Positions 13,315 to 26,039 of a DNA stretch of 32,000 nt are shown in pieces. Below the pieces are notes generated by a model that searched no databases, had not been told where the DNA came from, and worked only from the letters and a program-made list of their open reading frames with translations. The stretch lies in assembly GCF_025697965.1 (NCBI RefSeq), contig NZ_JAHWBK010000003.1. One strand, 5' to 3'. Origin of the DNA: Stenotrophomonas riyadhensis (GTDB lineage: Bacteria > Pseudomonadota > Gammaproteobacteria > Xanthomonadales > Xanthomonadaceae). The position numbers and the translations under genes are program-made. How positions within the stretch are numbered: the stretch's first letter is position 1; each line of letters begins with the position of its first letter.

Positions 13315-13672
13315 TCCACACGACCGCACAGATCTGACCGGCCCATGGGCCGGATTCGGCTTCCAAGGCGGCCATATGTTCACGCCTGAAGGTCACCAGC
13401 TGGATCCATGCGATATGACCTGGTGGTCGTTGACCTGCAACATCGCCCGGGAGTGGCGGCTGATGATGGCCGAGGCTCGCACAGGCTTGGCCGAACGATC
13501 GGTTCCGGTCTCCAAGGGATCCGCCACGGCGAAATCCGGCATGATCTACCTTGCCGAAGTCCTCAGAATTCGCCGAGAACGGCGGCTGGCCGGATGTGGA
13601 CCGGATTCCGACGCCGAGCCCTCCAATGTGGTCTATCTGAGCTGTGGGCCAAGGCCCCGCCAGCGCGTGTGA
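13301..13672 (+). CDS. DUF3653/XafT-like protein, copy C, 123 aa
   Basis: MIEIDPHDRTDLTGPWAGFGFQGGHMFTPEGHQLDPCDMTWWSLTCNIAREWRLMMAE...GPDSDAEPSNVVYLSCGPRPRQRV*. Confidence 0.7.
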   Translation: MIEIDPHDRTDLTGPWAGFGFQGGHMFTPEGHQLDPCDMTWWSLTCNIAREWRLMMAEARTGLAERSVPVSKGSATAKSGMIYLAEVLRIRRERRLAGCGPDSDAEPSNVVYLSCGPRPRQRV

Positions 13673-13707
13673 GGCGCCTCCGTAGGGGCGCTGCCCCTAC
13701 ACCCCGG
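13673..13707 (+). repeat. GTAG...CTAC REP-like hairpin, copy C
   Basis: ggcgcctccGTAGGGGCgctGCCCCTACaccccgg, directly after the TGA of copy C. Confidence 0.8.
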
Positions 13708-13715
13708 GTACGCGC

Positions 13716-14201
13716 TCACTTCCCATTGAAATCCCTTCTGAGCAACCAATCCAGCACCAGCCACATGGGCCTGCTGACAGGGACACCAGTTGCGACTCGA
13801 TTAAGAAGAGCCATCGCTAGCGTATAGACAACTTGATCCGTTTCGGCAATCACAACCGCCTCGTTTGGCCGATTGTAATGTTTGATCGCTCTTTTCCCTT
13901 CGTAAACGAAGTTGTAGACATCCGTGTCATCGATTCCGGGGATCTTGGCCGTCAACCTATTGGCAAGCTTTGTGATCGCACGATCCGACGACTCACCCCG
14001 GTGCTTAAGGACCGCCCCGAAGATTTCTTCGGCAGCGGCTGCCAAGTGCCAGACAGCAACCGCGTGGCCACCGCTCTGAAAAAGCTCACACGCGGAGTTG
14101 AGCAGTGCCTCCGCAATGTCCTCCTTAGTCCAGGCTGACGTTGAAGAGTCTTGAACCGGGGCGTCAAAACCCATTAGAGAGAGATTGTCGGGAAGCCTCA
14201 C
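13716..14201 (-). CDS. hypothetical all-helical cytoplasmic protein, 161 aa (cargo, lower GC)
   Basis: Clean ORF in a visibly AT-richer stretch. No signal peptide or TM. Occupies the cargo slot between the hairpin and zot. Confidence 0.55.
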   Translation of the reverse strand: MRLPDNLSLMGFDAPVQDSSTSAWTKEDIAEALLNSACELFQSGGHAVAVWHLAAAAEEIFGAVLKHRGESSDRAITKLANRLTAKIPGIDDTDVYNFVYEGKRAIKHYNRPNEAVVIAETDQVVYTLAMALLNRVATGVPVSRPMWLVLDWLLRRDFNGK

Positions 14202-14290
14202 TAAGTACCCTCAACGCCCGGCGCAGGAGTGACGGATATCGAAGCGGAGAGCGTACATCGAAACGTACGGAACCGTCAGTGGCCGTGGAT

Positions 14291-15041
14291 TCAGAAGCTT
14301 GCGGGGTATGGTGGCGTCTCCGGGAAAGTCCCCATGGGACGTTTGCCGACCTCAATCAGTGCGTGTGCGGCCTGCTCAGGCGAGCCTGCCGCCGCCTGTG
14401 CTACTCCCTGAGCAGGATCATCCCGACGCGGTTCCGCATCCTGCCTTGGTGCCCGATACGGGTTGTAGGCCGGGCCATCGCGTGCGATCGCCACGCAAAC
14501 CGGGATCGAGATTTTTGCCTTGGTGCCCTGCTCTGTTACGCACGTGCATGTGGTGTCCTGCGGCGTGGTGCCGGAGGCCATGCAGTACAGCTCAGGCTGC
14601 GATTGCACGGTGCGCTCATCGAAGGCGGGCACTAACCATGGCTGAAATTCGATGCGCGGTTTGTACTTCGCCACGTAATCATCGCGAGAGAGGGGCCGTG
14701 CCGCCGGCATGCCGGCGCCCAAGGGCGCCAGGGCACCTGCCGGCGCCAAAGCACCGGCCCCCTGCTCTTCCTTCTTTGTGACGGATGAAACTGGAAGGCT
14801 TTATGAGGAATAGCCATCCCAACCACAGGATGCTTATGAGGGCCACTACAACTGATAGCCCCTGCCAGACCCGTTTCGGCACCTTGAACTTGTGGCTTGC
14901 CGTATGCAGCGTTGCGCTGCGATAGCGAGCATAGAGATCCTTCGGGTAGACCCAGATCTCTTCCTCGGCCTTGTCGCGTATCCGTTCGTCGTAGGGATCG
15001 ACCTGCATACGGGTCCACGTCAGAACACCCGCGCGCTGCAT
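14291..15041 (-). pseudogene. zot: zot (pI) pseudogene: N-terminal ATPase third missing, one frameshift
   Basis: Two overlapping ORFs. 14679-15041 covers the region before and including the TM (...KVPKRVWQGLSVVVALISILWLGWLFLI). 14291-14749 covers the C-terminal domain (YKPRIEFQPWLVPAFDERTV...CVTEQGT...PMGTFPETPP). The frame switches near 14775-14800. No Walker A region is present. Confidence 0.75.
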
Positions 15042-15194
15042 GCCATTCCTGAGCGCTTGGTTGCATCAGTACCCATCGCAGGTAGCGTCACCACCTCAGC
15101 GGATGGACTGGGGTGTCTCGCTTGGCTGGACTCCTGCTGTAGTGCACTGGCCTCAAGCCCGTCACAGAGCGGCTTCATGCCCGGATGCGGATGA

Positions 15195-15377
15195 TTGGGC
15201 CAACGATACTGCTCGCAGTTGAGCGGCGTAATGGAGTGGTTGCCAACATCCGCGCAGGGCCAAGAGGCGTTCACGCTCAGCGAGTCCGGCACGCTGTTGC
15301 GGTATCGCCACGCATGGGAGCAGCGGCGTGAGCTTTACGTGGTGTATGCGCGCGGGAGTGCTGGGCCCTGCCCCTGA
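15195..15377 (+). CDS. truncated copy of a repeat-borne hypothetical ORF
   Basis: The C-terminal 36 aa (AFTLSESGTLLRYRHAWEQRRELYVVYARGSAGPCP) are near-identical to 23253-23531. TTG start directly after an in-frame TGA. Convergent with the CPCC gene. Confidence 0.25.
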   Translation: MGQRYCSQLSGVMEWLPTSAQGQEAFTLSESGTLLRYRHAWEQRRELYVVYARGSAGPCP

Positions 15378-15466
15378 TAGACATCCCTAATCCCCTGCCC
15401 TGACGATGTCCGGATTCAGGCAGTAGTGGGTATTCGTGAACGTCATGAGTTGAGTCCAAAGTGGAT

Positions 15467-15823
15467 TCAGATCGAGAGATCGCCCAAGTTCGACCAGTAA
15501 GCCTCCCCCTCGTGCGAGACGGCCTTGCTGTGCCAGTGCTTGTCGTCCCTTAAGGCTTCGTAGTGCCTGATTTCCGAGCTGGATAAAGGGCGCCAGCTAG
15601 ACCCGCGGCGAAAGCCGCTTGCGACATTGACGCCAATAGGCAACCTGAAAAGAGCTTTCTGCTGCGCTTGCGCCAGGGACTCGCCGCTGGCTCCGCCGAC
15701 GGATGTGGGGTTGGCAAGTAGTACTCCGTCATCCTCCCAGTCGCAGATCGGACATATGGCAAATGATCCGTAGAAGCCTTTCAGAGTCAGGAAGCCACAC
15801 GATGGACAAGGCAGATCGATCAT
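15467..15823 (-). CDS. CPCC-family Cys-rich protein, 118 aa
   Basis: MIDLPCPSCGFLTL...FAICPICDWEDDGVLLANPTSVGGASGESLAQAQ matches the CPCC (PF14206-like) pattern CPxCG...CxxCxWEDD. ATGA overlap with the upstream 55-aa ORF. Confidence 0.7.
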   Translation of the reverse strand: MIDLPCPSCGFLTLKGFYGSFAICPICDWEDDGVLLANPTSVGGASGESLAQAQQKALFRLPIGVNVASGFRRGSSWRPLSSSEIRHYEALRDDKHWHSKAVSHEGEAYWSNLGDLSI

Positions 15824-15987
15824 TGAGGCCCAAGAACATTAGGTGGGTGAATCACTCGACCAGCAGGTGTCGTGTAAGGCTGAATATGCAGTAGCTCGCG
15901 GGCTCGGCTCAAGCGCATTAAATGGGCGTCAGTAGTGAAGCGCTGTCCCACCTGGCGCAACAGCGCCTCGCGCTGCGTGAAGGTCAT
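15820..15987 (-). CDS. small protein, 55 aa (65 aa if the TTG at 16017 is used)
   Basis: MTFTQREALLRQVGQRFTTDAHLMRLSRARELLHIQPYTTPAGRVIHPPNVLGPQ. The 65-aa ORF translation in the track is identical in the second copy (23915-24112). Translationally coupled to the CPCC gene. Confidence 0.45.
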   Translation of the reverse strand: MTFTQREALLRQVGQRFTTDAHLMRLSRARELLHIQPYTTPAGRVIHPPNVLGPQ

Positions 15988-16022
15988 GGGGCGGCCTTTG
16001 ATTGCGCGATGAATCAAGTTCT

Positions 16023-16433
16023 CTACTTCAGATCTTTCGAGTAGTCATCAAGCAGCTTCTCCGCAACCCGCGCCACTCCCTCATCAATCTCGTTATCCGT
16101 CAGGAAGTCGGATAATGCGCGAAACTCCGCCTTATTCCTAACCCGTCCCCGCTTGAGAATTGCACGAACCTTGGCCGAGCCCCTATCCATAAAGAATTCA
16201 AAACTGAACCCATATGTGGATAGAAGATATTCCCTCGCAATTTTCCTGGCATCCTCGGGGAGATCATTCAGTCCATCAGCAATATCAGCTGCCACCTCAT
16301 AGAGCTTGCGACTACGTGCAAAATGCGTAACCGTCTTCCTCCGCAACTCAACGAGACGTGGGATATCGTTGGGGGAGGACAACATTGTGATGCCATCCTG
16401 GCACCATTTTTCCAGCTTTTCCAGTTCCATCAC
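16023..16433 (-). CDS. putative cognate immunity protein, 136 aa
   Basis: The start overlaps the RHS stop (ATGA). AT-rich, acidic, helical, with no signal peptide. About 82% identical to the orphan copy at 24118-24531. Confidence 0.7.
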   Translation of the reverse strand: MMELEKLEKWCQDGITMLSSPNDIPRLVELRRKTVTHFARSRKLYEVAADIADGLNDLPEDARKIAREYLLSTYGFSFEFFMDRGSAKVRAILKRGRVRNKAEFRALSDFLTDNEIDEGVARVAEKLLDDYSKDLK

Positions 16434-19400
16434 CTTTCACCAAAATTAGCCCACTGATAGCCAGTAAATGAATTCTTTTCGCCAAACATAAAATTCGACG
16501 ATTCATGATATAGCAATCCATTGGGGTTGCTCTTTGCCACTCCGCGAATAAGGTTTCCAACCTTTTCGCTGCCAATTCCACCCTTGTAATCGATCATTTG
16601 CTGTTCGCGCCCTCGAATGGCCAATTTGCCGCTCTCACCTTGCCCAGACTTATCCAGCTTCGGATTTCGATAGCCTTCCAGTCGCCTCCCCCAGTGTCGA
16701 GCGTACCGCTGCATCATAACTTCCTCAGGTGATCCGTAACCACTGGCTCGGCCAACGTAGGTGATCGTACGGACGTCTTCGACTCTGGTCATCGTGTAAG
16801 TGACAAACGTTTTCTCTTGCGGCCTGCTTTGCGATGCCTGCACCGTGACCGTGGCAAGGTTCACCGTTTGCGGCGCTGTGTCTACAGGCCTCTCGCCAAG
16901 TAGAACAGGGGGCGAGGGCGAGGGCGGGAGCGGCACAGGAAGCGGCATGGGCATAGGAACTGCTTGCCTTCCGTCGGGATCACGGAATCGAAGGGGGTTA
17001 TCGTTGGCGTAGCGATAACGATTGAAGTTGTACGCGTTCTCCAAGTTGACTGCATCAGGATCCGGCGAGATAAAGCGCCCCAATTGGGGGTCATAGAAGC
17101 GCTGCCCCATGTAGATCAGGCCGGTGTCGGCATCTTTAAGGTGACCGGAGTAGCCGGGCGTGTTCGCAGGAGGTGTTGCGTCGGCCTCGCCATACGGCGA
17201 CCAGAAGTGACGGGTTAGAACCGCACCATTGGCGCCACTGGTGGCCGCCAAGGTGTTGAGAGCGTCGTGATGAAGGTAAGTGAGCGTTGCACCCGCTGAA
17301 GAGCTGGTGCGAATCGCTAGCAGTCGCTTGCCCAGGTAGATGTAGTCGGACGTTTCCCCGCCCTGGGTGGATTCGATCAGCTCCCCGCCCACCAGGTACT
17401 GCCAGGTGCGATCTGGAATGTCTGATCCGTCTACGAAAAGCTCGGGCGCCCCTCGTTCCACAGGAAGCTGGATCGCTCTTCCGTCCAGCGGAACTGTGAT
17501 CGGTTCCTCCAGCCCCGGGATGTGTGGTGTGCCGCCTGAACTGCCTGAACTGCCCGATGCAGATGCGCGCAATCCTGCCCCGTCGTAGAAGTACTTCTGC
17601 ACATTCCCTGCGGCACGGAGCTGGCCACCCATGTCGTAGGTGAATGTCTGGCCGTTACGGATCGCCAGATTGCCTGCCGCGTCATAGGAGAAGCCAGAGA
17701 CACCACTGCCACCGGGGTCCCGCAGCAACTCCAGGCGATTGCGGGCGTCGTAGTGGAACGTACGCTCCCGCTTTCCCGGCAACCGCATCGAGACGATGTT
17801 GTCCAGCGTGTCATAGCCGAACGTGTACTGCCCATTGCCACCATAGGCTGGAGCACTGGCTTGAATCAGCCGGTCGAGACGGTCGTAGCCCAGGTTGATC
17901 GTCCCGGAGTCGCCGCGCACACCATCGCGGATCTGGGTGATGTTTCCTGCCGCATCGTAGCTGTAGTTCAGATCGACCGCGCCACCGTCGACGATGCGGC
18001 TGGTCAACTGTCGCGCGTTCTCGGTTACGCCACGTACGATGCCATTGCCATAGGTCAGCGCAGTGGCTTCGCCACTGGGAGAGTAGGCGATGTTGCTGGC
18101 GAGCACGGCGCCGGTGCCATCTTGCAGCCGTACGGGCTGACCCAGGGCGTTCAAGGACTGCCGGACGGAGTAGCCGTCGGGATAGTCCGTACGGATGTGC
18201 TGCCCCAGAGGGTCGTAGCCAAATCCCAGGGACCGGGCGCTGGCGCTGCCCACCACACGGCTCTGACTGGCCACCGACCCGAGTGAGTTGTAGGTACGGG
18301 TGGTCACCACCGGCACCCGATCCTGATTGAAGACCCTTTCGGTCTTCAGCTGGCCTGTGGGGGTGTACTCCAGCTGCTGATCACCCAGGCCATCAGGATA
18401 GACAACAGCCTGGAGGCGATTGCTGGAATCGTAGTTGCGGGAAATGCGACGAGCAGCAATCTGCGGTGACTCACGATCACATGCCGTCAGGCTGGGCAAA
18501 TCGAGTCCTGTTGCACTCCAAGCAATGTTTCCGGCCGCATCGTAGCCAAGCACGGTCGCCCCTGTTTCCGGCTCGATGACCTTGCACAGCCGGAGATTGT
18601 CGTCGTAGACGTATCGCCGGGCCACAGTTGGGGCCGGATTGTCTGGATTGACGGGCACGATAGGAGCGCCCTTGGCGGTGGCAACCGCAGTGGCAATTGC
18701 ATCACCGGCAACCGATAGCGTGAATCGGCTCGTTCCAGCGCCAAGCGGTACAACGACGGAACCGTTCGCACCACTGCCCACCACGGCACCACCATCTCGC
18801 TTGAGTTCTGCGCGCGAATCGGTGGCCGACCAGGTCACGGTGACGTTGCAGGTCTGCGTGCCCGATGCAATCTGGCACATCGCAGGAGCCACCGACACCG
18901 ATCCACTGGGCGCTGCGGGAACGACAAAGGTCCCGGAGCCGCCAATAGCGTTGTTGGGCTGTCCAACGGGGGAAATCCCGTGGACATAGATCGACTGCCC
19001 CCCGCGCTGACGCCGCTGCTCGTTGCTTATCGGGAGCGAGAAACGGTGATTCCCCCCAGCCTTGCAGAGCGTAGCCACGGCCGGCTCACTCGCCAAGTCG
19101 GCCTTGCCGGTCAGGAAGATCGTCCCGCCCCCGCCTGCGGCTCCCCCGGTGTAGACATGAAGGTCGATCGAAGATTCAATGCCTGTCGAACACGCCCAGC
19201 CCCGGATCTGTCCATCGCTGGAGACACCATCGATGCCGCCAATGACCTTGGACGGCGGCCCGGTCACCGTGACCTGGACATTGTCGCTTTCCCGGCCAAA
19301 CCACTCCTTTCCTTCTTCCAACAACCTCCATTGGAAGCTGTAGACACCGGGTAATGTCGGAGCGACCACATCGAACTCAAAGAACGCAGGCAACGGTGGG

Positions 19401-20341
19401 ATCACATCATTGGGCATTGGGACCCGCGCCCTGCCCCATCGAACGTTGTCATTGGGATTCCAGGACCCCAACGCATAGCCTGCCGCCGCCGACCACGTTG
19501 TGTTGCCCGTATTGGAAAATTTCAGCTTGACGCGATAGGTGCGCCCCGCCTCCATGCTGGTCGGAACTTCCTGTTGATACATCACACCACGATTGAGTCT
19601 TCCTGTCGTCTCAAATTTTTGCTCATTGCTGGTGCTTCCAAAGCGAACACCGTTGCGATTCATCTGCCACTGAATGGTGTTAGGTCCATTCTCTTTGGCG
19701 GCTGTGCCATTGAATGAGAACGTCACCGTCCCACCCGGGGCCACGTCGTGAGGAACAGAAACTTCGGCAATTCCCAGCAGGGTAGCGTCAAGAACGTAGC
19801 CCTCGGCCTGTCCCAGTCGATAGCCGTCCCCTGATCGCCACGTCGTGTTCCCTGTATTCCGGAATGTGACCGTGCCGCTGAAGGGCGTACCTCTGTCGCC
19901 AGACCCCGGCCAACTTGCCGAGACATACTCAGCCCCATCGAAAGGGGTTGGTGGCGCCGCTACTGTAATCGTAATGGTGGGCGAGATCAGCCGCCTGGAA
20001 ACTTCATCGCCATTGATGTTGCGCACACCGAACGCACTGAATACATAGTTATATGTACCTGCCGATAATCCGTTCTCAGTGTATATACCCTCCGAGAACC
20101 GGGAGATCACGACTCCATTTCGTGTCAGCTGTGGCTCGGAAAGATATTCATATTTGCCACCACTGCCTGTATTTCCGCTCTTGAGTTGCAACTGATACGT
20201 GGCAGGTGCCGTATAAGATCGCTGAGCTGGGCCCACCAACTCGATCCATACCTGGGCGCGTACGGACGGGCAGATAAAGGAAAGAAAAAGGCCCAGCAGA
20301 ACCGCGGCCATGCGCAGTTTTCCAGTGTTCGCGAATTCCAT
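16430..20341 (-). CDS. RHS-repeat polymorphic toxin, 1303 aa
   Basis: Sec signal (LGLFLSFICPSVRA|QV). Two tandem beta-sandwich repeats (F[RS]NTGNTTW...GY.LG...W[QR][ML]...FG). Many YD repeats (YDAAGN, YDSSNRL, YDPLGQ, YDAAGNI...). RHS core end ...YRYANDNPLRFRDPDGRQ. A Pro-rich linker precedes a 177-aa variable AT-richer C-terminus. Confidence 0.9.
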   Translation of the reverse strand: MEFANTGKLRMAAVLLGLFLSFICPSVRAQVWIELVGPAQRSYTAPATYQLQLKSGNTGSGGKYEYLSEPQLTRNGVVISRFSEGIYTENGLSAGTYNYVFSAFGVRNINGDEVSRRLISPTITITVAAPPTPFDGAEYVSASWPGSGDRGTPFSGTVTFRNTGNTTWRSGDGYRLGQAEGYVLDATLLGIAEVSVPHDVAPGGTVTFSFNGTAAKENGPNTIQWQMNRNGVRFGSTSNEQKFETTGRLNRGVMYQQEVPTSMEAGRTYRVKLKFSNTGNTTWSAAAGYALGSWNPNDNVRWGRARVPMPNDVIPPLPAFFEFDVVAPTLPGVYSFQWRLLEEGKEWFGRESDNVQVTVTGPPSKVIGGIDGVSSDGQIRGWACSTGIESSIDLHVYTGGAAGGGGTIFLTGKADLASEPAVATLCKAGGNHRFSLPISNEQRRQRGGQSIYVHGISPVGQPNNAIGGSGTFVVPAAPSGSVSVAPAMCQIASGTQTCNVTVTWSATDSRAELKRDGGAVVGSGANGSVVVPLGAGTSRFTLSVAGDAIATAVATAKGAPIVPVNPDNPAPTVARRYVYDDNLRLCKVIEPETGATVLGYDAAGNIAWSATGLDLPSLTACDRESPQIAARRISRNYDSSNRLQAVVYPDGLGDQQLEYTPTGQLKTERVFNQDRVPVVTTRTYNSLGSVASQSRVVGSASARSLGFGYDPLGQHIRTDYPDGYSVRQSLNALGQPVRLQDGTGAVLASNIAYSPSGEATALTYGNGIVRGVTENARQLTSRIVDGGAVDLNYSYDAAGNITQIRDGVRGDSGTINLGYDRLDRLIQASAPAYGGNGQYTFGYDTLDNIVSMRLPGKRERTFHYDARNRLELLRDPGGSGVSGFSYDAAGNLAIRNGQTFTYDMGGQLRAAGNVQKYFYDGAGLRASASGSSGSSGGTPHIPGLEEPITVPLDGRAIQLPVERGAPELFVDGSDIPDRTWQYLVGGELIESTQGGETSDYIYLGKRLLAIRTSSSAGATLTYLHHDALNTLAATSGANGAVLTRHFWSPYGEADATPPANTPGYSGHLKDADTGLIYMGQRFYDPQLGRFISPDPDAVNLENAYNFNRYRYANDNPLRFRDPDGRQAVPMPMPLPVPLPPSPSPPVLLGERPVDTAPQTVNLATVTVQASQSRPQEKTFVTYTMTRVEDVRTITYVGRASGYGSPEEVMMQRYARHWGRRLEGYRNPKLDKSGQGESGKLAIRGREQQMIDYKGGIGSEKVGNLIRGVAKSNPNGLLYHESSNFMFGEKNSFTGYQWANFGER

Positions 20342-20354
20342 TCTTGTCGTGCCT

Positions 20355-23003
20355 TCAGTTAGCGGACTGGGCTACTTCCGTCGTAAGTCCAAAAGCATTT
20401 CGTTTAATGCTGACTTTGCTGCCATCGGCCCGGATGATCTGTGCAGGCTTCCCATAATCCGGTCCATCAAAGGCATCAAACCGAGTGATCGTCTGGTGGC
20501 CTAGCGGGTCAATCGTCGTAGTCGTGGCATTGATACCGTAGGCAATGGTGGTGATCAGCAGGCCCTGCTCACTGTCCTGAGAGGAAGAGGTTTTCCTTCC
20601 AAGTGCGTCGTACTCGGTCCAGGTGCCAGTCGCCACATTGCTATCCCTTGAAGGATAGGAAGTGAACGTAAGGCGACCTTCGCTGTCGTAACTGCTCCTG
20701 ACCCACCGCTGGGTTCCAGCCATGTCGCTTGCATCGTATTCGTGCACCAGACGGGGCTGCCAAAGCGCGTCGAGATAGGTTTCCTGGCGGCGCGCCCCTT
20801 GAGTGTTATCGACCCTCCAGTGCCCCGCCGAGAGGCCGTATTCATCAGCTGAGATCTGCCGGAACGAGATGGTTGTCTTGGCCCACTGGTTCTCATCGAC
20901 CGGTGGTTGGACTTCCCGCACACGCCCCATCGGATCGTGCAGATAGGACGTGGTCCTCTGCAGTTCGTCCGTAGTCGAGGTGATCCACCCGTTCCCGTCT
21001 GCCGTCATGCGGTTGGTGGTGCCATCCGGATTGATGACCAGCCGTGGCACTCCTCTGTACCAGTCCTGGATGTGCGTCTCGTTCCCTTTCCCGTCACGCA
21101 CGTTGCTGATCGTGCCGTCCGAGGCATAAGTAACGCTCTGCAGCAATGCCCCAGCACGATAGACGGCATTCGGCTTGGCCAGGGCGTCGTAGGTGTACCG
21201 GGTGGTGGTCTTCCCGGAGGCGGCCTCCTTGACGCTCAGCACCTGATCCTGGACCCAAGGGCTGGCCGTATCCAGATACTCCCTCACCTCGGCCTTAGTT
21301 CCAGAAGGACCGGTGTAAGTCACACGTCCTGGACGTGCACTACGATTGAAGTCACTGAAGATCACGCGATAGGTATCACCATCCTGAGAGGATTGGCTTT
21401 CGCTCAGCGCACTGAGCGTACCTGCAAGGAATTGGCCCGACTGAATACTAATCGAGCGCCCAATTCGTTCAGCAAACGGCCCAGTTGCAGAGCCGAACAG
21501 GTAGGTCGAAAACTCTTCGCGTTGCACCTGGCCTGCCGCATCCAAAACCTGCTTTTGAAGGAGCTTTCGCTCATCCAATCCTGGGTCAGCGCCATAGCGC
21601 TCTCGAATCTGCGTCCCATCCGGCCTCGTCAGACTGGACCAACGACCGCCTCCCGGCAGCTGCAGGTTGTAGTTTCGCGTACTCACCATTGGTGGCAGGC
21701 CGGGCCCGGTGATGGTACGCCGCTTCAAAGACCAAACCTGGTAGTGGGAGGGCGCCAGTCCTTGGCAGGGGTCGGAGCGAATAAACAGCTCCATTTCGAA
21801 GTCGAACACGCCCCGGGCCCCCGACGGAGAGACCACAGTCATCTGCGTGGGAGGGGGTTCTCTGCCGGCGCGAATCTCACAACCACCATCGTCGTCGGCT
21901 TTGCGGTAAGGAAAGCTGGACTGAAGACGCCCGCGATGACTGTAGGTCCAAGCGGAGCCATCGGGAAGCGTGACGCGGGACAAGCCGCCGTCATTGCCGT
22001 CCGCATCCCCCAAATAGGCATATCGCCAAACCCGCCCATTGGCCGTCACAGTGGCTACCCGACCGTCGCCATCGTAACTCAGGTCAATCCGGCGACCGTC
22101 GCTGGACTCGATTTTGGTTAGCTTATCCCCGTTGTAGCTGTAGGATACCCAGTTCCCATGGCGATCCTCCACACGCGAGGCCAGAAGATAGACCCGCTTA
22201 CGCTCCACCGAGCGACTACCGGCACCGTTATTGAACTCAGCCCTCGCATAGGGCCTTTCCACGCCCCAGTCGAAGAAGTACTTCTTTCCATCAGGGGTGT
22301 GCCCGATAAACGCCTCGCCCGGATAACCGTTGCGTGTTGCAGCCAAACAACTGAACCGGGCTCTGGAGGTAGTCATCCACTTGGGCGCCTCCAGGCCTGG
22401 TGCTGTGGCATAGGACGGGTCGTCAGCAATCAGAAGCTCCTCGCCATTTCCACCATGCCACTTCACGTCAATGCCGAAGCCGATATCGGTATAGCCCCAA
22501 GTCTCCAATAGGAAGGGCGCTTTATTGACCGAGCAGCGCTGTGTGGTCTGAGCGCCTCGATCGCCAGTAATCCACCCAGCACCCTTGGTCCAAACGCCTG
22601 ACATATAGGGAACGACGATTTCCCAATCATCAAAGAGTGTCAGTCCTTTGGCCTCGCTGTAGCGAGACCCTCGGTTGACCGCTTCCACCCCGAAGCGTCG
22701 GGCAATGCTGACCGGAAGGTCGAAGTTGCCAGGAATGGAGACATCTTCAATGAGAAACTCAGTGCTGCCGTCGAACCCCGAGGTTCGATCGCCGAACACC
22801 TCGTCCGCAGAGATGGCGGTGACAGATTGCGCGCTCTTTATCCGCTTCTCATATTCTTGGTAGCTAAAGAGTCCATCTTGGGCCGACACGTGGAATCCGG
22901 CTCCCAACATAAGCGCTACGCCCACGATGAGCGAGCAAAGTCGTGGGCTGCGATAAGTGCTACGGGGAGCCTTTCCCTCCCGCCTGTCCCTGGCAGAATT
23001 CAT
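20355..23003 (-). CDS. Sec-signal YD/RHS-repeat protein, 882 aa (no core-end motif, no toxin tip)
   Basis: Signal-like N-terminus (LIVGVALMLGAGFHVSA|QDG). YD repeats (SYNGDKLTKIESSDGRRIDLSYDGDGRVATV, YTYDALAKP, SYDSEGRL, EYDALGRK). Ends 13 nt before the 1303-aa gene. Confidence 0.85.
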   Translation of the reverse strand: MNSARDRREGKAPRSTYRSPRLCSLIVGVALMLGAGFHVSAQDGLFSYQEYEKRIKSAQSVTAISADEVFGDRTSGFDGSTEFLIEDVSIPGNFDLPVSIARRFGVEAVNRGSRYSEAKGLTLFDDWEIVVPYMSGVWTKGAGWITGDRGAQTTQRCSVNKAPFLLETWGYTDIGFGIDVKWHGGNGEELLIADDPSYATAPGLEAPKWMTTSRARFSCLAATRNGYPGEAFIGHTPDGKKYFFDWGVERPYARAEFNNGAGSRSVERKRVYLLASRVEDRHGNWVSYSYNGDKLTKIESSDGRRIDLSYDGDGRVATVTANGRVWRYAYLGDADGNDGGLSRVTLPDGSAWTYSHRGRLQSSFPYRKADDDGGCEIRAGREPPPTQMTVVSPSGARGVFDFEMELFIRSDPCQGLAPSHYQVWSLKRRTITGPGLPPMVSTRNYNLQLPGGGRWSSLTRPDGTQIRERYGADPGLDERKLLQKQVLDAAGQVQREEFSTYLFGSATGPFAERIGRSISIQSGQFLAGTLSALSESQSSQDGDTYRVIFSDFNRSARPGRVTYTGPSGTKAEVREYLDTASPWVQDQVLSVKEAASGKTTTRYTYDALAKPNAVYRAGALLQSVTYASDGTISNVRDGKGNETHIQDWYRGVPRLVINPDGTTNRMTADGNGWITSTTDELQRTTSYLHDPMGRVREVQPPVDENQWAKTTISFRQISADEYGLSAGHWRVDNTQGARRQETYLDALWQPRLVHEYDASDMAGTQRWVRSSYDSEGRLTFTSYPSRDSNVATGTWTEYDALGRKTSSSQDSEQGLLITTIAYGINATTTTIDPLGHQTITRFDAFDGPDYGKPAQIIRADGSKVSIKRNAFGLTTEVAQSAN

Positions 23004-23252
23004 GTCCGCTACATCCTTGAGTGAAGGGTGATAGGTGACTCAGCTTCTATTTGGGTGACGAATTACTCCCCCGTCCTCGACTTGTCAAGCCTCGCTAAGC
23101 GGGGCGCTCTTTGGGGGGGTAATGCCGATGGCGACCAGGGCCGGTAGGCAGATGCCGATGAGCGTGACTGCGCGTGCTGTCTTGGGCGCTTCCGGGATGG
23201 GCTTTGGCGCAGGGCCTCTCGCCGAATACAGGGTGGTTCCAGGAGGGTCTCC

Positions 23253-23531
23253 ATGGAGCGATTGCCGACCTCAACAAGCAGGTGGCGATGGCTCGGGCTT
23301 GCTGGCCGATGCCACGAGCTGCGACTGAAACGGCAGTGGCTGGACTTGGTGGCTGACCAGCCGATCGTCTATCGGCTTGACGCGCAGGGCCAATTGAACA
23401 GAAGTCAGGAGAACGATGACGCGTTCACGCTCAGCGAGTCCGGCACGCTGTTGCGGTATCGCCACGCATGGGAGCAGCGGCGTGAGCTTTACGTGGCGTA
23501 TGCGCGCGGGAGTGCTGGGCCCTGCCCCTGA
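23253..23531 (+). CDS. hypothetical protein, 92 aa (repeat-borne; may be a fragment)
   Basis: ...LVADQPIVYRLDAQGQLNRSQENDDAFTLSESGTLLRYRHAWEQRRELYVAYARGSAGPCP. Upstream, protein-like stretches occur in two other frames, so the 5' part may be frameshifted. Confidence 0.3.
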   Translation: MERLPTSTSRWRWLGLAGRCHELRLKRQWLDLVADQPIVYRLDAQGQLNRSQENDDAFTLSESGTLLRYRHAWEQRRELYVAYARGSAGPCP

Positions 23532-23620
23532 TGGACATCCCTAATCCCCTGCCCTGACGATGTCCGGATTCAGGCAGTAGTGGGTATTCGTGAACGTCAT
23601 GAGTTGAGTCCAAAGTGGAT

Positions 23621-23918
23621 TCAGATCGAGAGATCGCCCAAGTTCGACCAGTAAGCCTCCCCCTCGTGCGAGACGGCCTTGCTGTGCCAGTGCTTGTCGT
23701 CCCTTAAGGCTTCGTAGTGCCTGGACGCCAATAGGCAACCTGAAAAGAGCTTTCTGCTGCGCTTGCGCCAGGGACTCGCCGCTGGCTCCGCCGACGGATG
23801 TGGGGTTGGCAAGTAGTACTCCGTCATCCTCCCAGTCGCAGATCGGACATATGGCAAATGATCCGTAGAAGCCTTCCAGAGTCAGGAAGCCACACGATGG
23901 ACAAGGCAGATCGATCAT
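23621..23918 (-). pseudogene. CPCC-family gene inactivated by a 59-bp deletion
   Basis: Identical to 15467-15823 apart from K15E, except that 15570-15628 is absent. The N-terminal part (23541-23918 ORF) and the C-terminal part (...RHYEALRDDKHWHSKAVSHEGEAYWSNLGDLSI in the 23621-23857 ORF) are in different frames. Confidence 0.8.
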
Positions 23919-24082
23919 TGAGGCCCAAGAACATTAGGTGGGTGAATCACTCGGCCAGCAGGTGTCGTGTAAGGCTGAATATGCAGTAGCTCGCGGGCTC
24001 GGCTCAAGCGCATTAAATGGGCGTCAGTGGTGAAGCGCTGTCCCACCTGGCGCAACAGCGCCTCGCGCTGCGTGAAGGTCAT
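23915..24082 (-). CDS. small protein, 55 aa (second copy)
   Basis: Translation identical to 15820-15987. Confidence 0.4.
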   Translation of the reverse strand: MTFTQREALLRQVGQRFTTDAHLMRLSRARELLHIQPYTTPAGRVIHPPNVLGPQ

Positions 24083-24117
24083 GGGGCGGCCTTTGATTGC
24101 GCGATGAATCAAGTTCT

Positions 24118-24531
24118 CTACTTCAGATCTTTCGAGTAGTCATCAAGCAGCTTCTCCGCAACCCGCGCCACTCCCTCATCAATTACGTTATCCGTCAGGA
24201 AGTCAGACAATACGCGAAAATCCGCCTTATTCCTGACTCGTCCACGCTTCAGAATTGCACGAGCCTTGGCCGAGGCCCTGTCCATAAAGAATTCAAAGCT
24301 GAACCCATAAGTAGAGATGAGATACTCCCTTGCAATACGCCTCGCATCCTCAGGAAGATCACTCAAATCCTCGGATATATCGCTTGCTAGCTCGTAGAGC
24401 TTGGGGCTGCGAGAAAAGTGCGCAACCAATTTCCGCCTCAATTCGACAAGGTGCGGGGTATCGTCAGGAGAAGACAACATTGTGATCCCATCCTGGCACC
24501 ATTTCTCTAGGATTTCCAGGTTCATTTCCAT
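24118..24531 (-). CDS. orphan immunity protein, 137 aa
   Basis: MEMNLEILEKWCQDGITMLSSPDDTPHLVELRRK... Intact ORF. It is divergent from 16023-16433 mainly in the N-terminal two-thirds, and the last ~30 aa are identical. Confidence 0.7.
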   Translation of the reverse strand: MEMNLEILEKWCQDGITMLSSPDDTPHLVELRRKLVAHFSRSPKLYELASDISEDLSDLPEDARRIAREYLISTYGFSFEFFMDRASAKARAILKRGRVRNKADFRVLSDFLTDNVIDEGVARVAEKLLDDYSKDLK

Positions 24532-24730
24532 TCGCCGAAATTTGTCAACTGGTAGCCGGTGTACGAGTTTATCTCACCAAACATCGAACTGGATGCCTCA
24601 TGATAGAGCAGCCCGGAAGGATTGCCTTTCGCCACACCTCGAATCAGGTTTCCAACCTTCTCGCTACCAATCCCGCCCTTGTAATCGATCATTTGCTGCT
24701 CACGACCCCAAATAGCCACTGGCGCCTTGC
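24522..24730 (-). pseudogene. orphan RHS toxin-tip fragment (last ~65 codons only)
   Basis: ...VAIWGREQQMIDYKGGIGSEKVGNLIRGVAKGNPSGLLYHEASSSMFGEINSYTGYQLTNFGEWK aligns with the end of the 1303-aa protein. No RHS core lies upstream, and homology stops at ~24730 where phage-derived sequence begins. Confidence 0.75.
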
Positions 24731-24754
24731 TGGGGATTACAGACGGTGCAATCG

Positions 24755-24899
24755 GGCACTACCGAATGGGTCAGCGCGTGCCGCAAGCGCGGGTATTCGC
24801 CGAGAGCGACGCCTGGACGCGCATGATCTCGGCCCCGACGCCGAGGCGTCCATTGTGGTCTAGATGAGTCGTGGACAGAGATCGTGTCAGCGCGTGTAA
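24755..24899 (+). pseudogene. DUF3653/XafT-like 3' remnant, copy D
   Basis: ...ALPNGSARAASAGIRRERRLDAHDLGPDAEASIVV*MSRGQRSCQRV* aligns with the C-termini of copies A-C (IRRERRL...GPDSDAEPSNVV...RQRV*). It has an internal stop and the 5' two-thirds are missing. Confidence 0.6.
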
Positions 24900-24933
24900 G
24901 GCGCGACTGTACGGGCGACTGCCCTACACCCCA
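24900..24933 (+). repeat. degenerate copy of the post-XafT hairpin
   Basis: ggcgcgactGTACGGGCgactGCCCTACaccccag. Same position and flanks as copies A-C, but the stem is broken. Confidence 0.55.
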
Positions 24934-24968
24934 GTACAATGCAATCTGGACGTGATTGGGGGGGGCGT

Positions 24969-25433
24969 ATGGAGCGCGAACGGCCTGAGTACCTTCCGCC
25001 GATTGAGCGGAAGCGTTGGAATTTCCCATGGCTGATCACCGGATTTTTGACTCTGGTGAGTCTTACAACCATCGGCGTACTTACGCTCGGCCGCACCAAC
25101 AGTGCCTGGAGTGAGCGTTTTGAAGGTGTGCGGCGATCCATCGAGTCCGCTGAGCAGCCGTCTGCTGTGAGGACTGAGCCGCCAACGGCTGTCAGATCGG
25201 CGTCAGCGGCTCCTCCTGAGCGTCAGCAGGTGCGGCCGACACAGAAGGCGCAGGATCTGCGCTGTATCAATGGAATGTTCTTCCGTCGAATTGAAGGTGG
25301 CTGGGAGAACCTGCCGGGCTCTCGATGTGGCGACATCCCTAAGGGCGCTGTCCAGTGCTTCGCCGGAAAGCCCTACAGGCAGATGGCTGCAGATGGTGGC
25401 TGGATTCTTTCACCGCGAGATCGTTGCCCGTGA
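24969..25433 (+). CDS. membrane-anchored Cys-containing protein, 154 aa (homolog of 4721-5098)
   Basis: MERERPEYLPPIERKRWNFPW, a TM helix, a linker, then LRCINGMFFRRIEGGWENLPGSRC plus an extra Cys-containing tail. Same position after a XafT-like gene and hairpin as in prophage 1. Confidence 0.6.
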   Translation: MERERPEYLPPIERKRWNFPWLITGFLTLVSLTTIGVLTLGRTNSAWSERFEGVRRSIESAEQPSAVRTEPPTAVRSASAAPPERQQVRPTQKAQDLRCINGMFFRRIEGGWENLPGSRCGDIPKGAVQCFAGKPYRQMAADGGWILSPRDRCP

Positions 25434-25909
25434 TGCGTCACGTTAATAAGGGGCAGGTCATCGTTCGCGAGTTTGTCGAGGCCGATCGAGAGGCCCTTCG
25501 CAAGCTGTTCGTCGCATCCCGCGATGCCGCCTTCTCGTGGGCTGCCGTTGGTGCCCACAAGCTTGAAGACTTTGATGTGAGCACTGCAGGCGAGCGGATT
25601 CTGGTGGCAGAGCATTCGTGCACCCCCATCGGCTTTGCGTCCGTATGGCAGGACGACAGCTTCTTGCATAACCTATTTGTTCATCCGCACTATCAGCGAT
25701 GTGGCGTGGGAGGAATGCTGCTGGCGGGCTGCGACAGGTACTTTTCCGCCGCACCAACGCTGAAATGCCTGAAAGCCAATGATCCTGCCAAGCGGTTTTA
25801 TCAGTCTCAGGGATGGCGCGTGTGTAGTGAGGCCGATGGTCCGGAGGGGTCGTATGTCCTTATGGTGAGGGCCAGGCCCAACGATTCATTGAGGGCGAAG
25901 CCAGGATGA
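25433..25909 (+). CDS. GNAT-family N-acetyltransferase, 158 aa
   Basis: The ATG overlaps the upstream TGA (TGATG). IVREFVEADREALRKLF..., LFVHPHYQRCGVGGMLL (motif A-like Q/RxxGxG) and FYQSQGW are typical GNAT features. Confidence 0.75.
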   Translation: MRHVNKGQVIVREFVEADREALRKLFVASRDAAFSWAAVGAHKLEDFDVSTAGERILVAEHSCTPIGFASVWQDDSFLHNLFVHPHYQRCGVGGMLLAGCDRYFSAAPTLKCLKANDPAKRFYQSQGWRVCSEADGPEGSYVLMVRARPNDSLRAKPG

Positions 25910-26039
25910 CTGTTTCGTCGCCGCTGGCGCACTAATGCGGAAGGTCGTTCCCTCGTCCCTGCCCTGCCCCGAACCACTGCAATTGTGGGCCTCCTGGCGA
26001 AGCGCGTCGGCTGAGTCATTCAGTTCTGCACTTGCTCAG

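Follow-up and report, generated by a model that had tools for sequence, protein, structure and literature searches.

Two neighboring genes of Stenotrophomonas riyadhensis, designated A and B, encode what sequence alignment identifies as the two halves of one Rhs cage. Together with a third gene, C, they probably form an operon for a T6SS-independent antibacterial Rhs polymorphic toxin, the cage of which is made from two polypeptides. An Rhs cage cut into two separately exported proteins would be a little-described, T6SS-independent variant of a known bacterial weapon. Moreover, the break in the shell would supply free chain ends, to which diverse binding modules and interchangeable toxin "cartridges" can attach. 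The locus was analyzed within a 32,000-nucleotide stretch of DNA (the window), in which an earlier note had recognized a two-gene, Sec-signal, non-T6SS Rhs system. This was confirmed, as signal peptides were found on both A and B and neither protein contained PAAR or VgrG.

Locus layout and division of the cage

Genes A and B were called as open reading frames on the minus strand, and their sizes and spacing agreed with those given earlier, 13 nt separating the stop codon of A from the ATG of B. AAGGA is located 11 nt before the ATG of A, AAGG precedes the ATG of B, and the ATG of gene C overlaps the stop codon of B (TGATG). Prophages, which are filamentous and non-lytic, adjoin the locus. The parts of A and B are listed below.

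20355..23003, minus strand: gene A, 882-aa pre-protein, putative N-terminal half of the Rhs cage, without core motif or toxin (ORF, RHS_repeat, AF2 model, colinearity)
22881..23003, minus strand: signal peptide of A, residues 1-41, predicted cleavage between VSA and QD (hydropathy and -3/-1 rule)
22134..22880, minus strand: A_N, residues 42-290, family-defining N-terminal region (common to all three architectures in 80 loci)
20358..22133, minus strand: YD-repeat half-shell of A, residues 291-882 (AF2 hairpins, alignment to the single-chain relatives P0052 and P0066)
16430..20341, minus strand: gene B, 1303-aa pre-protein with signal peptide, Ig/FW array, C-terminal half-shell, Rhs core, Pro-rich linker, and toxin
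20255..20341, minus strand: signal peptide of B, residues 1-29, predicted cleavage between VRA and QV (heuristic; kept in orthologues)
18626..20254, minus strand: external module of B, residues 30-572 (PF16158 twice, internal repeat)
17201..18625, minus strand: YD-repeat half-shell of B, residues 573-1047 (alignment to P0052 and P0066, TEN_YD-shell)
16964..17200, minus strand: Rhs-associated core of B, residues 1048-1126, YDPQLGRFISPDP ... NPLRFRDPDGRQ, presumed autoproteolytic plug (TIGR03696)
16433..16963, minus strand: Pro-rich linker (1127-~1176) and C-terminal toxin domain (~1177-1303), putative Tox-URI1/GIY-YIG-like nuclease

The first protein had been described as having YD repeats with neither core end nor toxin, and the domain searches were in line with this: RHS repeats were matched in A by PF05593 (E 1e-12), and TIGR03696 (Rhs_assc_core) was absent from A in the NCBIfam search. 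The AF2 model of A (pLDDT 84.7) showed unbroken beta-hairpins over residues 241-880. Its closest folds in Foldseek were Rhs shells, teneurins, and TcB/YenB; Rhs structures were found at E~1e-24, and the top query-normalised TM-scores, 0.49-0.51, were obtained with YenB, a TcB protein. In Pfam, neither PF03534 (SpvB) nor a propeller family was found in A at E<=0.1. The first strands of the shell (FDGSTEFLIEDVSIPGNFDLPVSIARRF) fall within the A_N region, which is approximately 250 aa long and also has a globular insert bearing C157 and C219. A_N shows few strands at residues 106-240 in the AF2 model, matched no Pfam family, and presumably caps or plugs the cage.

In B, RHS repeats were matched by PF05593 (E 8e-19), and the core was matched by TIGR03696 at residues 1048-1124 (E 1.4e-20; 73.5 bits, cut-off 32.5). 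The core closes with NPLRFRDPDGRQ and includes NPLRFRDPDG at 1115-1124, which is of the PxxxxDPxG type; by analogy with solved Rhs and TcC structures, the core of B would self-cleave. The earlier note had assigned a core end, a toxin tip, and a shell of its own to the second protein. The core end and the toxin tip were upheld, but the shell had to be reassigned, since by homology B holds only its C-terminal half and A the N-terminal half.

This division was derived from alignment with single-chain relatives. In P0052, residues 4-634 align with A 268-880 (31% identity, E 9e-67) and residues 616-1140 with B 549-1128 (33% identity, E 8e-77), the core of P0052 being at 1059-1136. Similarly, residues 58-758 of P0066 align with A 77-879 and residues 761-1270 with B 573-1132 (E 3e-39). 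On these chains, the A stretch is followed after approximately 2 residues by B from residue 573, and A is colinear with their N-terminal ~760 residues. Because of this colinearity, A and B are read as consecutive parts of one shell. In addition, mature A (841 aa) and B 573-1126 (554 aa) sum to 1395 aa, a length that agrees with single chains measured from the A_N start to the core end (residues 21-1433 in L012). The TEN_YD-shell model also matched at its positions 35-98 (shell start) in A and 575-890 in B. Thus, the shell, core, and toxin on a single polypeptide that define Rhs toxins were not found, the shell being shared between A and B; the colinear alignment instead points to a cage split over two proteins, the second with core and toxin, as in TcB/TcC.

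Proteins of the A type are annotated in databases as "sugar-binding protein" or "wall associated protein". If these names were taken at face value, A could be a secreted YD-repeat adhesin and B, in which both RHS repeats and a core occur, a complete and compact Rhs toxin with a small shell, the two being independent neighbors with a signal peptide each. This reading is improbable. The names are automatic labels and not tests, and the shell and core of B span only ~555 residues versus ~1000-1150 in solved Rhs cores and single-chain relatives. Moreover, independence would leave unaccounted for the end-to-end alignment of A and B with its ~2-residue junction and an adjacency or start/stop overlap that is conserved across genera.

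In total, 326 related loci were found, and 80, mostly from Lysobacterales, were kept. A single chain is encoded in 36 of these, whereas the chain is split just before the core in 17 and mid-shell, as here, in approximately 16; another 8 are cut by contig ends. The mid-shell split is intact in ~16 species-level genomes of several genera, the gene pairs being adjacent or overlapping by 1-4 nt in Stenotrophomonas, Xanthomonas, Lysobacter, and Pseudoxanthomonas. The downstream fragments of both split types begin with a canonical signal peptide in every case, and in the pre-core split the mature N-terminus starts exactly at the strand YIHTDALGS. Arrays of FW, Big_7, PKD, fn3, or ChitinaseA_N domains are located at the B-type N-terminus or the shell-protein C-terminus and are absent from single chains; in other species, Big_7, PKD, or FW arrays occupy the position of the B module.

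As the single chain is the commonest form (36/80) and two loci, L055 and L058, do resemble fragmented single chains, the pair might be regarded as a pseudogene, in which a frameshift or sequencing error has interrupted one single-chain Rhs gene. This is hardly credible for A and B. Both ORFs are intact, an exact copy of A occurs in an independent assembly (P0001), the A/B junction is 99% identical in L009, and orthologues of 50-88% identity as well as other genera show the same split. The frameshift, which had been named beforehand as an outcome that would overturn the two-gene reading, fails because B opens with a separate signal peptide, followed by a ~545-aa module without single-chain counterpart, and because the split is intact in ~16 genomes.

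Signal peptides, external module, and delivery

Signal peptides of A, B, and their relatives were assigned using our own heuristic, based on hydropathy and the -3/-1 residues. Both proteins carry Sec signal peptides, which would direct their export. The signal peptide of A has the n-region RSTYRSPR and the h-region LCSLIVGVALM (Kyte-Doolittle 2.66), with cleavage predicted after residue 41; in the AF2 model, residues 20-34 are helical and residues 1-43 are of low pLDDT. That of B has K8/R10 in the n-region and the h-region VLLGLFLSFIC (2.80), with cleavage predicted after residue 29. The B-type signal peptide is kept in orthologues, for example in L001, L005-L008, and L018 (...AQAQ before and AWIELTGPAQT after the cleavage site), and equivalents of both peptides are conserved in other-genus orthologues. 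Mature A and mature B contain 4 and 6 Cys, respectively, and C157 and C219 of A are retained in all of 43 homologues, which fits disulfide bonds formed outside the cytoplasm.

The external module of B begins with an N-terminal segment (30-139), followed by two NBR1-type FW domains (~140-362) and then by a segment at 363-572 that contains the Cys pairs 384/426 and 489/498. FW-type beta-sandwiches had been proposed at 19262-19942 (B ~134-360), together with a Pfam search of the B N-terminus and of A. The search returned RHS repeats in A and two NBR1-FW domains in B, the latter as two matches to PF16158 (N_BRCA1_IG; E 1.1e-10), which scored 42.4-45.6 bits and thus exceeded the gathering threshold of 28. 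Identity between the two repeats is 34% (E 6e-14), and the region weakly matches NBR1 (PDB 4OLE). No Pfam family was assigned to the putatively Ig-like segments 30-139 and 363-572, and pieces of the module are common to secreted M4 and S8 proteases and to other RHS proteins with Big_7. The FW/Ig module may bind a surface or glycan, as suggested in the earlier note. As the array is placed at the shell break, it should project from the cage exterior.

The N-terminus of B had also been held to be unrelated to PAAR or VgrG, and indeed no such Pfam match was obtained. The PAAR- or VgrG-binding N-terminus of T6SS effectors was absent from A and B in the Pfam and NCBIfam searches, with no linked vgrG or eag, and a Pfam scan of the ~40 window ORFs found no PAAR, VgrG, T6SS, T2SS, or TcA family. 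No vgrG, eag, or TcA-size gene was seen flanking 84 related loci, where the large upstream ORFs checked by Pfam were those of L024 and L031, both PurL, and other large antisense stretches (e.g., in L014 and L022) are unannotated. Delivery by a contractile or syringe-type apparatus whose genes are located in another part of the genome, either a T6SS or a TcA translocator, is thereby given a very low probability. In some Stenotrophomonas strains, Rhs effectors do accompany a T6SS (preprint 10.64898/2026.07.13.738213), the fold of A is similar to TcB as well as to T6SS Rhs shells, and the genes were read within the window, outside which the rest of the genome lies. However, such delivery is at odds with the lack of PAAR, VgrG-binding, SpvB, and beta-propeller domains in A and B, as well as with the flanks of the related loci. 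The cleavable Sec signals, moreover, point to the periplasm, away from cytoplasmic T6SS loading and cytoplasmic Tc assembly.

Release of the A/B complex through the T2SS (Xps) is considered most likely, by analogy with Bcn-A, an Rhs bacteriocin of Xanthomonas perforans with supernatant activity that was lost in an xpsD mutant (PMC7259588). A T2SS-linked Rhs family has also been predicted in Xanthomonas (preprint 10.1101/2025.05.08.652813). Near the related loci, within ~8 kb (6-10 kb for the loci collected first), a prepilin/GspG-type motif was found in only 1 of 85 sources; thus, the gspG linkage given in that preprint was not seen for the A/B family.

The same split cage could instead be tethered by its Ig/FW array to the producer surface or to outer-membrane vesicles and act on contact in a WapA/CDI-like manner, or it could be freed by lysis. 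This is rather unlikely, though a realistic possibility. No T2SS linkage was seen, surface-attached proteins often contain FW and Ig-like domains, and Tc toxins are freed by lysis (PMC10847048). The adjoining prophages could likewise suggest lysis, but they are filamentous and non-lytic. Tethering, for its part, is countered by the absence of a lipobox, anchor, or autotransporter domain from A and B. Furthermore, Bcn-A, the sole experimentally studied Xanthomonadales Rhs bacteriocin, acts cell-free and needs XpsD (PMC7259588).

Toxin tip and candidate immunity genes

The C-terminal tip of B differs sharply from the shell in its conservation: compared with the S. lactitubi orthologue, the shell is 90% identical and the toxin 17%. 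The GC content falls over the toxin and immunity genes (0.537 vs 0.598 at the toxin, 0.50 in gene C). The toxin family has at least 1330 representatives and was C-terminal in the best 150 matches listed. It is not in Pfam, and no GIY-YIG Pfam match was obtained for the B tip.

The conserved motifs of the toxin are TY, YVGR, R..HH, RGREQQ, and GN. Tox-URI1 nuclease tips occur on RHS toxins of the signal-peptide class, and their signature was given as "Y, YxG, R, [RK]xxE, N" (PMC3482391). In the numbering of the toxin segment, TY32, Y45-V-G47, R62, R93-G-R-E96, and N113 follow this signature in order. All signature residues except Y32 are invariant or at least 90% conserved in a 74-sequence alignment, and the first-strand TY is in the majority consensus of both toxin alignments. 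The AF2 model of the toxin (pLDDT 90.2) has the element order beta-beta-alpha-alpha-beta-alpha, which is that of the GIY-YIG fold. No sequence match was found in the PDB and no PDB fold match at E<0.05; the top BFVD matches were weak (E 6e-3 to 0.1, with probabilities reaching 0.99) and were mostly GIY-YIG, Seg, and group I intron endonucleases. The signature, with weak support from the fold, makes the toxin a probable DNA-cutting nuclease of the Tox-URI1/GIY-YIG type.

The genes and repeats associated with the toxin are as follows.

16023..16430, minus strand: gene C, 135-aa candidate immunity protein without signal peptide (overlap with the B stop codon)
24525..24716, minus strand: orphan 3' toxin fragment, equal to B residues ~1240-1303, without the GIY-YIG half
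24118..24531, minus strand: paralogous immunity gene, 137 aa, adjoining the orphan toxin fragment (clear paralogue of C; surrounding DNA repeat 88% identical)
15264..16623, unstranded: direct repeat of ~1.3 kb, copy 1, with the toxin 3' end, immunity gene, small ORF, and Cys_rich_CPCC gene (15467-15823)
23418-24718: direct repeat, copy 2, with CPCC gene (23541-23918)

Gene C matched no Pfam or NCBIfam family and no known immunity family; its position, together with the paralogue beside the orphan fragment, makes it the likely immunity gene for the B toxin. The orphan toxin fragment and the paralogous immunity gene are placed upstream of A, and the gene beside a related orphan toxin is unrelated to C. 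The two repeat copies are identical at 303 of 306 positions over the CPCC part and at 872 of 995 over the toxin/immunity part, and PF14206 matches the Cys_rich_CPCC genes.

Proposed mechanism and comparison with known systems

A and B would be produced from one transcript, each being exported unfolded via Sec. In the periplasm, mature A, with its N-terminal cap region and half-shell, and B 573-1126, with its half-shell and core plug, may assemble into one closed cage, as TcB and TcC do. The aspartyl-protease motifs of the B core would cut after DPDG, so that ~175 aa of linker and toxin stay enclosed in the cage, and the ~545-aa N-terminal array of B, including the two NBR1-FW domains, would remain outside and probably bind a target-cell surface structure or matrix. 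The complex would then leave the producer, most likely via the Xps T2SS as reported for Bcn-A, and the nuclease toxin would act in the target cytoplasm. Cytoplasmic C would neutralize toxin entering sibling cells.

The locus resembles TcB/TcC in its split but is not a Tc toxin. The TcB/TcC cocoon (YenB/YenC2, PDB 4IGL; TcdB2-TccC3, PDB 4O9X) is likewise an RHS cage of two polypeptides split mid-shell, the second with a core plug and a C-terminal toxin, and the B core matches TcC cores. The TcB/TcC likeness drawn in the earlier note therefore stands for the split cage and goes no further, as the SpvB and beta-propeller domains and the TcA partner of Tc proteins are all missing from the A/B locus. 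No TcA translocator gene was found in the window, and no TcA-size ORF in 84 related loci (the upstream ORFs of L024 and L031 being PurL). Tc subunits also lack the Sec signal peptides that both A and B have, and TcC starts directly at the RHS repeats, whereas B has a 545-aa N-terminal module with two FW domains. The candidate immunity gene beside B points to a bacterial and not an insect target.

By its description, the Bcn-A locus (PMC7259588) comprises an RHS shell protein without obvious toxin, a separate Rhs-like ORF that bears a signal peptide, and an immunity gene. It resembles the pre-core split found in 17 loci, a likeness taken from the description of BcnA (GenBank AF454545.2). Its split point differs from that of A and B, with a 1398-aa shell, a 290-aa ORF, and two further small ORFs that are required, and no FW/Ig module was reported on its toxin-bearing subunit (PMC7259588).

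According to the preprint (10.1101/2025.05.08.652813), XRhs F VIII of Xanthomonas is likewise a lineage-specific, non-T6SS Xanthomonadales Rhs, with a diffusible T2SS route proposed; this likeness also follows from description. Its T2SS prediction rests on gspG linkage, which was not seen near the A/B family. The two-gene architecture was not found in the available text of that preprint, and the word "split" is absent from its main text.

WapA of Bacillus subtilis, with the "T2SS" (signal-peptide) RHS class of Zhang et al. 2012 (PMC3482391), is Sec-dependent and T6SS-independent, as predicted for A and B, and is accompanied by an immunity protein, to which C would correspond. It is, however, single-chain and belongs to a Gram-positive cell-wall context, and no split cage with two signal peptides is described in PMC3482391. 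Accordingly, from the WapA likeness proposed earlier, only Sec dependence was retained.

T6SS Rhs effectors (RhsA of P. protegens, PDB 7Q97; Salmonella bongori Rhs, PDB 8QJD; Tse15) gave the best Foldseek E-values for the A model. They likewise have a YD-repeat cage, a TIGR03696 core with DPxG motifs, a polymorphic C-terminal toxin, a downstream immunity gene (gene C being the candidate here), and orphan toxin/immunity modules. These effectors are single-chain, cytoplasmic proteins with a PAAR or VgrG-binding N-terminus and Eag chaperones, and no such N-terminus was detected in A and B. In contrast, the A/B pair is distinguished by its signal peptides, conserved Cys pairs, and what the alignments indicate to be a two-piece cage.

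Gene order and division of the shell

The cassette is composed of three open reading frames (ORFs) in the same orientation.

20355..23003, minus strand: A, upstream shell gene, 882 aa
16430..20341, minus strand: B, downstream gene with Rhs core and toxin, 1303 aa
ATG at 16430, running to 16023, minus strand: C, candidate immunity gene, 135 aa

A and B are separated by 13 nt, and the start codon of C overlaps the stop codon of B (TGATG). Signal peptides, called by hydropathy and a -3/-1 heuristic rather than SignalP, were predicted in A (a basic n-region, then LCSLIVGVALM, with cleavage between VSA and QD) and in B (K/R, then VLLGLFLSFIC, with cleavage between VRA and QV). The two-gene, Sec-signal RHS pair described in the earlier note was thus confirmed by the ORFs and their signal-like N-termini. 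Its description of A as a YD-repeat protein without core or toxin also held, as RHS repeats were present and the Rhs-associated core TIGR03696 was absent. B contained RHS repeats and the core at residues 1048-1124 (E 1.4e-20); the core ends NPLRFRDPDGRQ, and ~175 residues lie beyond it. Mature A and mature B contain 4 and 6 Cys, respectively, and C157 and C219 of A were invariant across 43 homologues; the Cys content and this invariant pair fit extracytoplasmic folding.

Most work on Rhs toxins treats them as cargo of the T6SS. In a Pfam scan of ~40 window ORFs, no T6SS, T2SS, PAAR, VgrG, or TcA family was found, in agreement with the claim that secretion-system genes are not recognisable in the window, and a T6SS effector was rejected on the lack of PAAR, VgrG, and T6SS families there. 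The family-defining N-terminal region of A (A_N) matched no Pfam or NCBIfam family, and Rfam gave no match over window 13000-26000. The promoter/terminator scan of the locus was uninformative, with fewer sites than in shuffled sequence.

B had been credited with a YD-repeat shell of its own, but it was found to hold the C-terminal half only, judging from single-chain alignments, lengths, the halves of a shell model, and a structure model of A. Two homologues of A, P0052 and P0066, possess the Rhs core and are therefore single-chain Rhs toxins, with shell, core, and toxin in one polypeptide. P0052 4-634 was colinear with A 268-880 (31% identity, E 9e-67), and P0052 616-1140 aligned to B 549-1128 (33% identity, E 8e-77). 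Similarly, P0066 58-758 aligned to A 77-879 and P0066 761-1270 to B 573-1132. Therefore, the end of A and B ~573 are consecutive points of the shell. Mature A (841 aa) and B 573-1126 (554 aa) sum to 1395 aa, which equals the span from the A_N start to the core end in single chains. Moreover, the start of the Pfam teneurin shell model (positions 35-98) was matched in A and its end (575-890) in B. In the AlphaFold2 model of A, built from a 43-sequence alignment (pLDDT 84.7, pTM 0.82), the signal peptide was disordered, the first strands began at residue 72, residues 106-240 formed a less regular insert, and beta-hairpins ran unbroken through 241-880. When this model was compared with the PDB using Foldseek, Rhs shells were matched at E~1e-24, followed by teneurins and Tc cocoons, and the top query-normalised TM-scores (0.49-0.51) were to the TcB protein YenB. 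On these alignments and this model, A is the N-terminal half-shell, and B 573-1126 is the C-terminal half-shell and plug.

The remaining part, B 1-572, comprises the signal peptide and a module with no counterpart in single-chain proteins. The two ~110-aa repeats of Nbr1-FW type noticed earlier at 19262-19942 (B residues ~134-360) were recognised by Pfam N_BRCA1_IG, the NBR1 FW domain (a beta-sandwich), as two matches above the gathering score, with 34% identity to each other. No further Pfam domain was found in B 30-572. Close relatives conserve the pieces that flank the FW domains, and the ~110 residues immediately preceding the B shell resemble Big_7-annotated regions of other RHS proteins. 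Typical secreted enzymes, namely M4 metalloproteases, S8 subtilases, and chitinase-N proteins, share pieces of the module. At the equivalent location, other species have 2-5 Big_7 domains, PKD, or FW. As the module is variable and located at the chain break, it should sit outside the cage, where it may plausibly bind a target surface or glycan.

Family and its three architectures

Related loci were collected by a degenerate-pattern scan of species-representative genomes, with the pattern derived from an alignment of A homologues. The scan found 326 loci, 80 of which were fetched. Most belonged to Lysobacterales (Stenotrophomonas, Xanthomonas, Lysobacter, Luteimonas, Pseudoxanthomonas, Arenimonas, Rhodanobacter, and Dyella), and a few were from Burkholderiales, Pseudomonas, Myxococcota, Acidobacteriota, and one Bacteroidota MAG. 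The A/B junction in L009, a 3580-bp contig of a MAG labelled Ancylobacter novellus, was 99% identical to the window; this contig probably comes from Stenotrophomonas and was placed in an alphaproteobacterial MAG by mis-binning.

Architectures were assigned by phmmer with A and B segments against plus-strand ORFs called from the first start codon. The A_N region opens all loci, and three forms were distinguished. Single chains of ~1600-1750 aa (36 loci) contain A_N, A-type repeats, B-type repeats, core, and toxin, in that order, and have no Ig/FW-like array. In the pre-core split (17 loci), a core-less shell protein of 1334-2160 aa, mostly ~1740-1880, is followed by a small ORF with core and toxin. 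The shell protein carries a ~450-850-aa ChitinaseA_N/fn3-like extension at its C-terminus, and the small ORF, mostly 280-360 aa and up to 447, has a signal peptide and the core at residues ~50-150 (about 187-264 in L042). The mid-shell split of the window was seen in about 16 loci, in addition to the S. lactitubi and L. capsici loci. Eight loci were interrupted by contig ends, and two (L055 and L058) resemble broken, frameshifted single-chain genes.

The possibility that A and B are one gene split by a frameshift was also considered. A canonical signal peptide opens the downstream protein of both split forms; where the split is pre-core, the predicted mature N-terminus of that protein lies exactly at the conserved strand YIHTDALGS. 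The genes of the mid-shell pairs lie next to each other or share 1-4 nt. In a neighbour-joining tree of the A-type part, which is crude and has no support values, the three forms were interleaved, and mid-shell splits appeared in several clades, each kept over substantial divergence; this picture of how the architectures spread is only suggestive. Based on the survey, the downstream signal peptides, the adjacency, and the tree together, a frameshift artefact was therefore excluded, and the mid-shell split is, by these comparisons, a maintained state kept in relatives.

Several loci contained additional ORFs. In L042 (Undibacterium flavidum, 9-13258), a core-less 1334-aa shell gene is accompanied by three core-plus-toxin ORFs of 415-447 aa with signal peptides, one downstream and two upstream of it, and by two shorter core-containing ORFs further upstream. 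Such a cluster resembles a set of alternative toxin cartridges serving a single shell. Extra short Rhs-core or YD-fragment ORFs near the main genes of L010, L014, L027, L042, L055, L058, and L078 look like orphan tips or decayed copies.

Toxin tip, immunity gene, and surroundings

When B was compared with its S. lactitubi orthologue, identity was 87-90% across the shell and the FW and mid modules, 74% in the N-terminal segment, and 68% in the core, and it dropped to 17% over the final 127 residues. The GC content fell from 0.60 to 0.54 over the linker and toxin and reached 0.50 in C, so that window 16023-16963 had a GC content of 0.50-0.54 compared with ~0.59-0.60 elsewhere in A and B. B thus has a swapped polymorphic tip, and the GC drop fits horizontal exchange of this tip.

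The toxin domain matched no Pfam or NCBIfam family. A word-indexed search found 14 relatives, and an exhaustive profile search found at least 1330 cluster representatives; the match was C-terminal in the best 150 of those listed, in proteins of up to 3335 aa. In a Pfam scan of ten relatives, eight had an N-terminal extension, six of these being RHS proteins. The conserved residues (TY, YVGR, R..HH, AIRGREQQ.ID, and GN.IRGV) match the Tox-URI1 signature "Y, YxG, R, [RK]xxE, N" (Zhang et al. 2012, PMC3482391). The AF2 model (pLDDT 90.2) has the element order beta-beta-alpha-alpha-beta-alpha. PDB sequence searches with the toxin and its 15-sequence profile gave nothing at E<=10, and the fold search with the model gave no significant match; its top matches, pyruvoyl arginine decarboxylase and ribosomal proteins, were judged to be chance and rejected. 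Weak BFVD matches (E 6e-3 to 0.1) were mostly to GIY-YIG, Seg-like, and group I intron endonucleases. The toxin is thus quite probably a nuclease of the URI/GIY-YIG type.

C has no signal peptide and no Pfam or NCBIfam family. It is a candidate immunity protein because of its position and the presence of a C paralogue in an orphan module. None of the 85 fetched loci had homologues of C, the CPCC protein, or the small ORF, and the neighbour of a related orphan toxin, P0071, was unrelated to C.

A ~1.3-kb direct repeat brackets A-B-C (window 15264-16623 and 23418-24718); its copies are 99% identical in the part with a Cys_rich_CPCC gene and 88% identical in the part with the toxin 3' end and immunity gene. 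The features outside A-B-C are as follows.

187-4716, plus strand: filamentous (inovirus-like) prophage 1, with Zot and DUF2523 genes
about 6100-15230: filamentous (inovirus-like) prophage 2, with Zot, DUF2523, CI-like repressor, DUF3693, and DUF3653
15467-15823, minus strand: CPCC gene (Cys_rich_CPCC PF14206), other repeat copy
23541-23918, minus strand: CPCC gene (Cys_rich_CPCC PF14206), upstream repeat copy
24118-24531: C paralogue, upstream repeat copy
24525-24716: orphan toxin fragment (equivalent to B ~1240-1303), upstream repeat copy

Orphan Rhs modules are usually downstream of the main gene; the upstream repeat copy is an orphan toxin/immunity module unusually placed upstream of the main genes. 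Each CPCC gene comes after an immunity gene and a ~55-aa ORF, and the two are 89% identical in the first 72 residues and divergent afterwards. Both prophages lie to the left of the cassette, and the second, which in pieces shares ~90% identity with the Stenotrophomonas phages SMA6 and SMA9, ends at ~15230, adjoining the direct repeat. This phage match also assigns the host to Stenotrophomonas. The end of the phage DUF3653 gene occurs twice, at 76-84% identity (13568-13705 and 24795-24932), and its second occurrence is immediately upstream of the orphan toxin fragment. An earlier copy of B was apparently cut short by a phage remnant. The cassette adjoins integrases or comM in other genomes and is therefore mobile.

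Proposed mechanism and relation to known systems

A and B each have a signal peptide and a half-shell; in B, the core has protease motifs and the tip is variable, and a small gene is coupled to the pair. In the proposed mechanism, both chains would be exported by Sec and A and B would build one cage in the periplasm, where autoproteolysis would trap the toxin and the FW/Ig array would be displayed on the exterior. The cage would then be released and taken up by a competitor, in which the toxin would damage DNA, while C would protect siblings. As every piece has its own Sec signal, it is implied that an Rhs cage can assemble after export, outside the cytoplasm; the TcB/TcC cage, the two-protein Tc-toxin cocoon, is put together in the cytoplasm.

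Release is the weakest step of this scheme and would follow the precedent of Bcn-A, an RHS-family bacteriocin of Xanthomonas perforans that is active in supernatants and lost in an xpsD mutant (PMC7259588). Its locus encodes a shell protein of 1398 aa and has an ORF of 290 aa with a signal peptide and similarity to Rhs, together with an immunity gene (PMC7259588); it resembles the pre-core split when the locus descriptions are compared. A T2SS-linked Xanthomonas Rhs family is also predicted in a 2025 preprint (10.1101/2025.05.08.652813). In the family studied here, a GspG/prepilin-type gene was nearby in only 1/85 sources, and genomic T2SS linkage was therefore dropped as evidence.

Tentatively, and with less than even confidence, A and B are proposed to form a soluble two-component Rhs bacteriocin that may be assembled in the periplasm and released by the T2SS, a TcA-independent antibacterial counterpart of the Tc "BC" cocoon. 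In such a system, A would serve as a reusable chassis, and B-type subunits or small core-plus-toxin ORFs would be exchangeable cartridges bearing the toxin and a variable Ig/FW receptor-binding array. If true, repeated switching between one-piece and two-piece forms would be the family's way to change targets and toxins.

To our knowledge, the export, assembly, and delivery of T6SS-independent Rhs toxins of Gram-negatives are largely open. The present family occurs widely across Lysobacterales (Stenotrophomonas, Xanthomonas, and Lysobacter among them) and provides a natural experiment in which the same cage occurs as one chain, as a shell with a small core-toxin piece, and as two half-shells. 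The variable Ig-like/FW arrays at the break are a concrete candidate for target recognition by a diffusible Rhs bacteriocin, and the points on assembly and targeting are amenable to genetics and cryo-EM. They bear on how strains of plant-associated and clinical Stenotrophomonas and Xanthomonas compete.

Sec-dependent RHS toxins were catalogued as a class in 2012 (PMC3482391), and a T2SS-dependent Rhs bacteriocin has already been reported (PMC7259588). In the open-access texts searched, no description was found of a shell split midway with both halves bearing signal peptides, of variable Ig/FW arrays at the shell break, or of three interconvertible architectures coexisting in one family. The TcB/TcC-like arrangement suggested by the earlier note stood in one respect, as one cage is divided between two proteins, A and B being its halves. 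However, membership of the Tc toxins was rejected, since A and B lack the SpvB domain and propeller, have signal peptides, and are accompanied by a candidate immunity gene, and no TcA family was found among the window ORFs scanned; the large upstream ORFs of loci L024 and L031, considered as TcA-like partners, proved to be PurL. A-B-C is an Rhs polymorphic toxin by its shell, core, and variable tip, with a candidate immunity gene, and departs from the single-chain rule.
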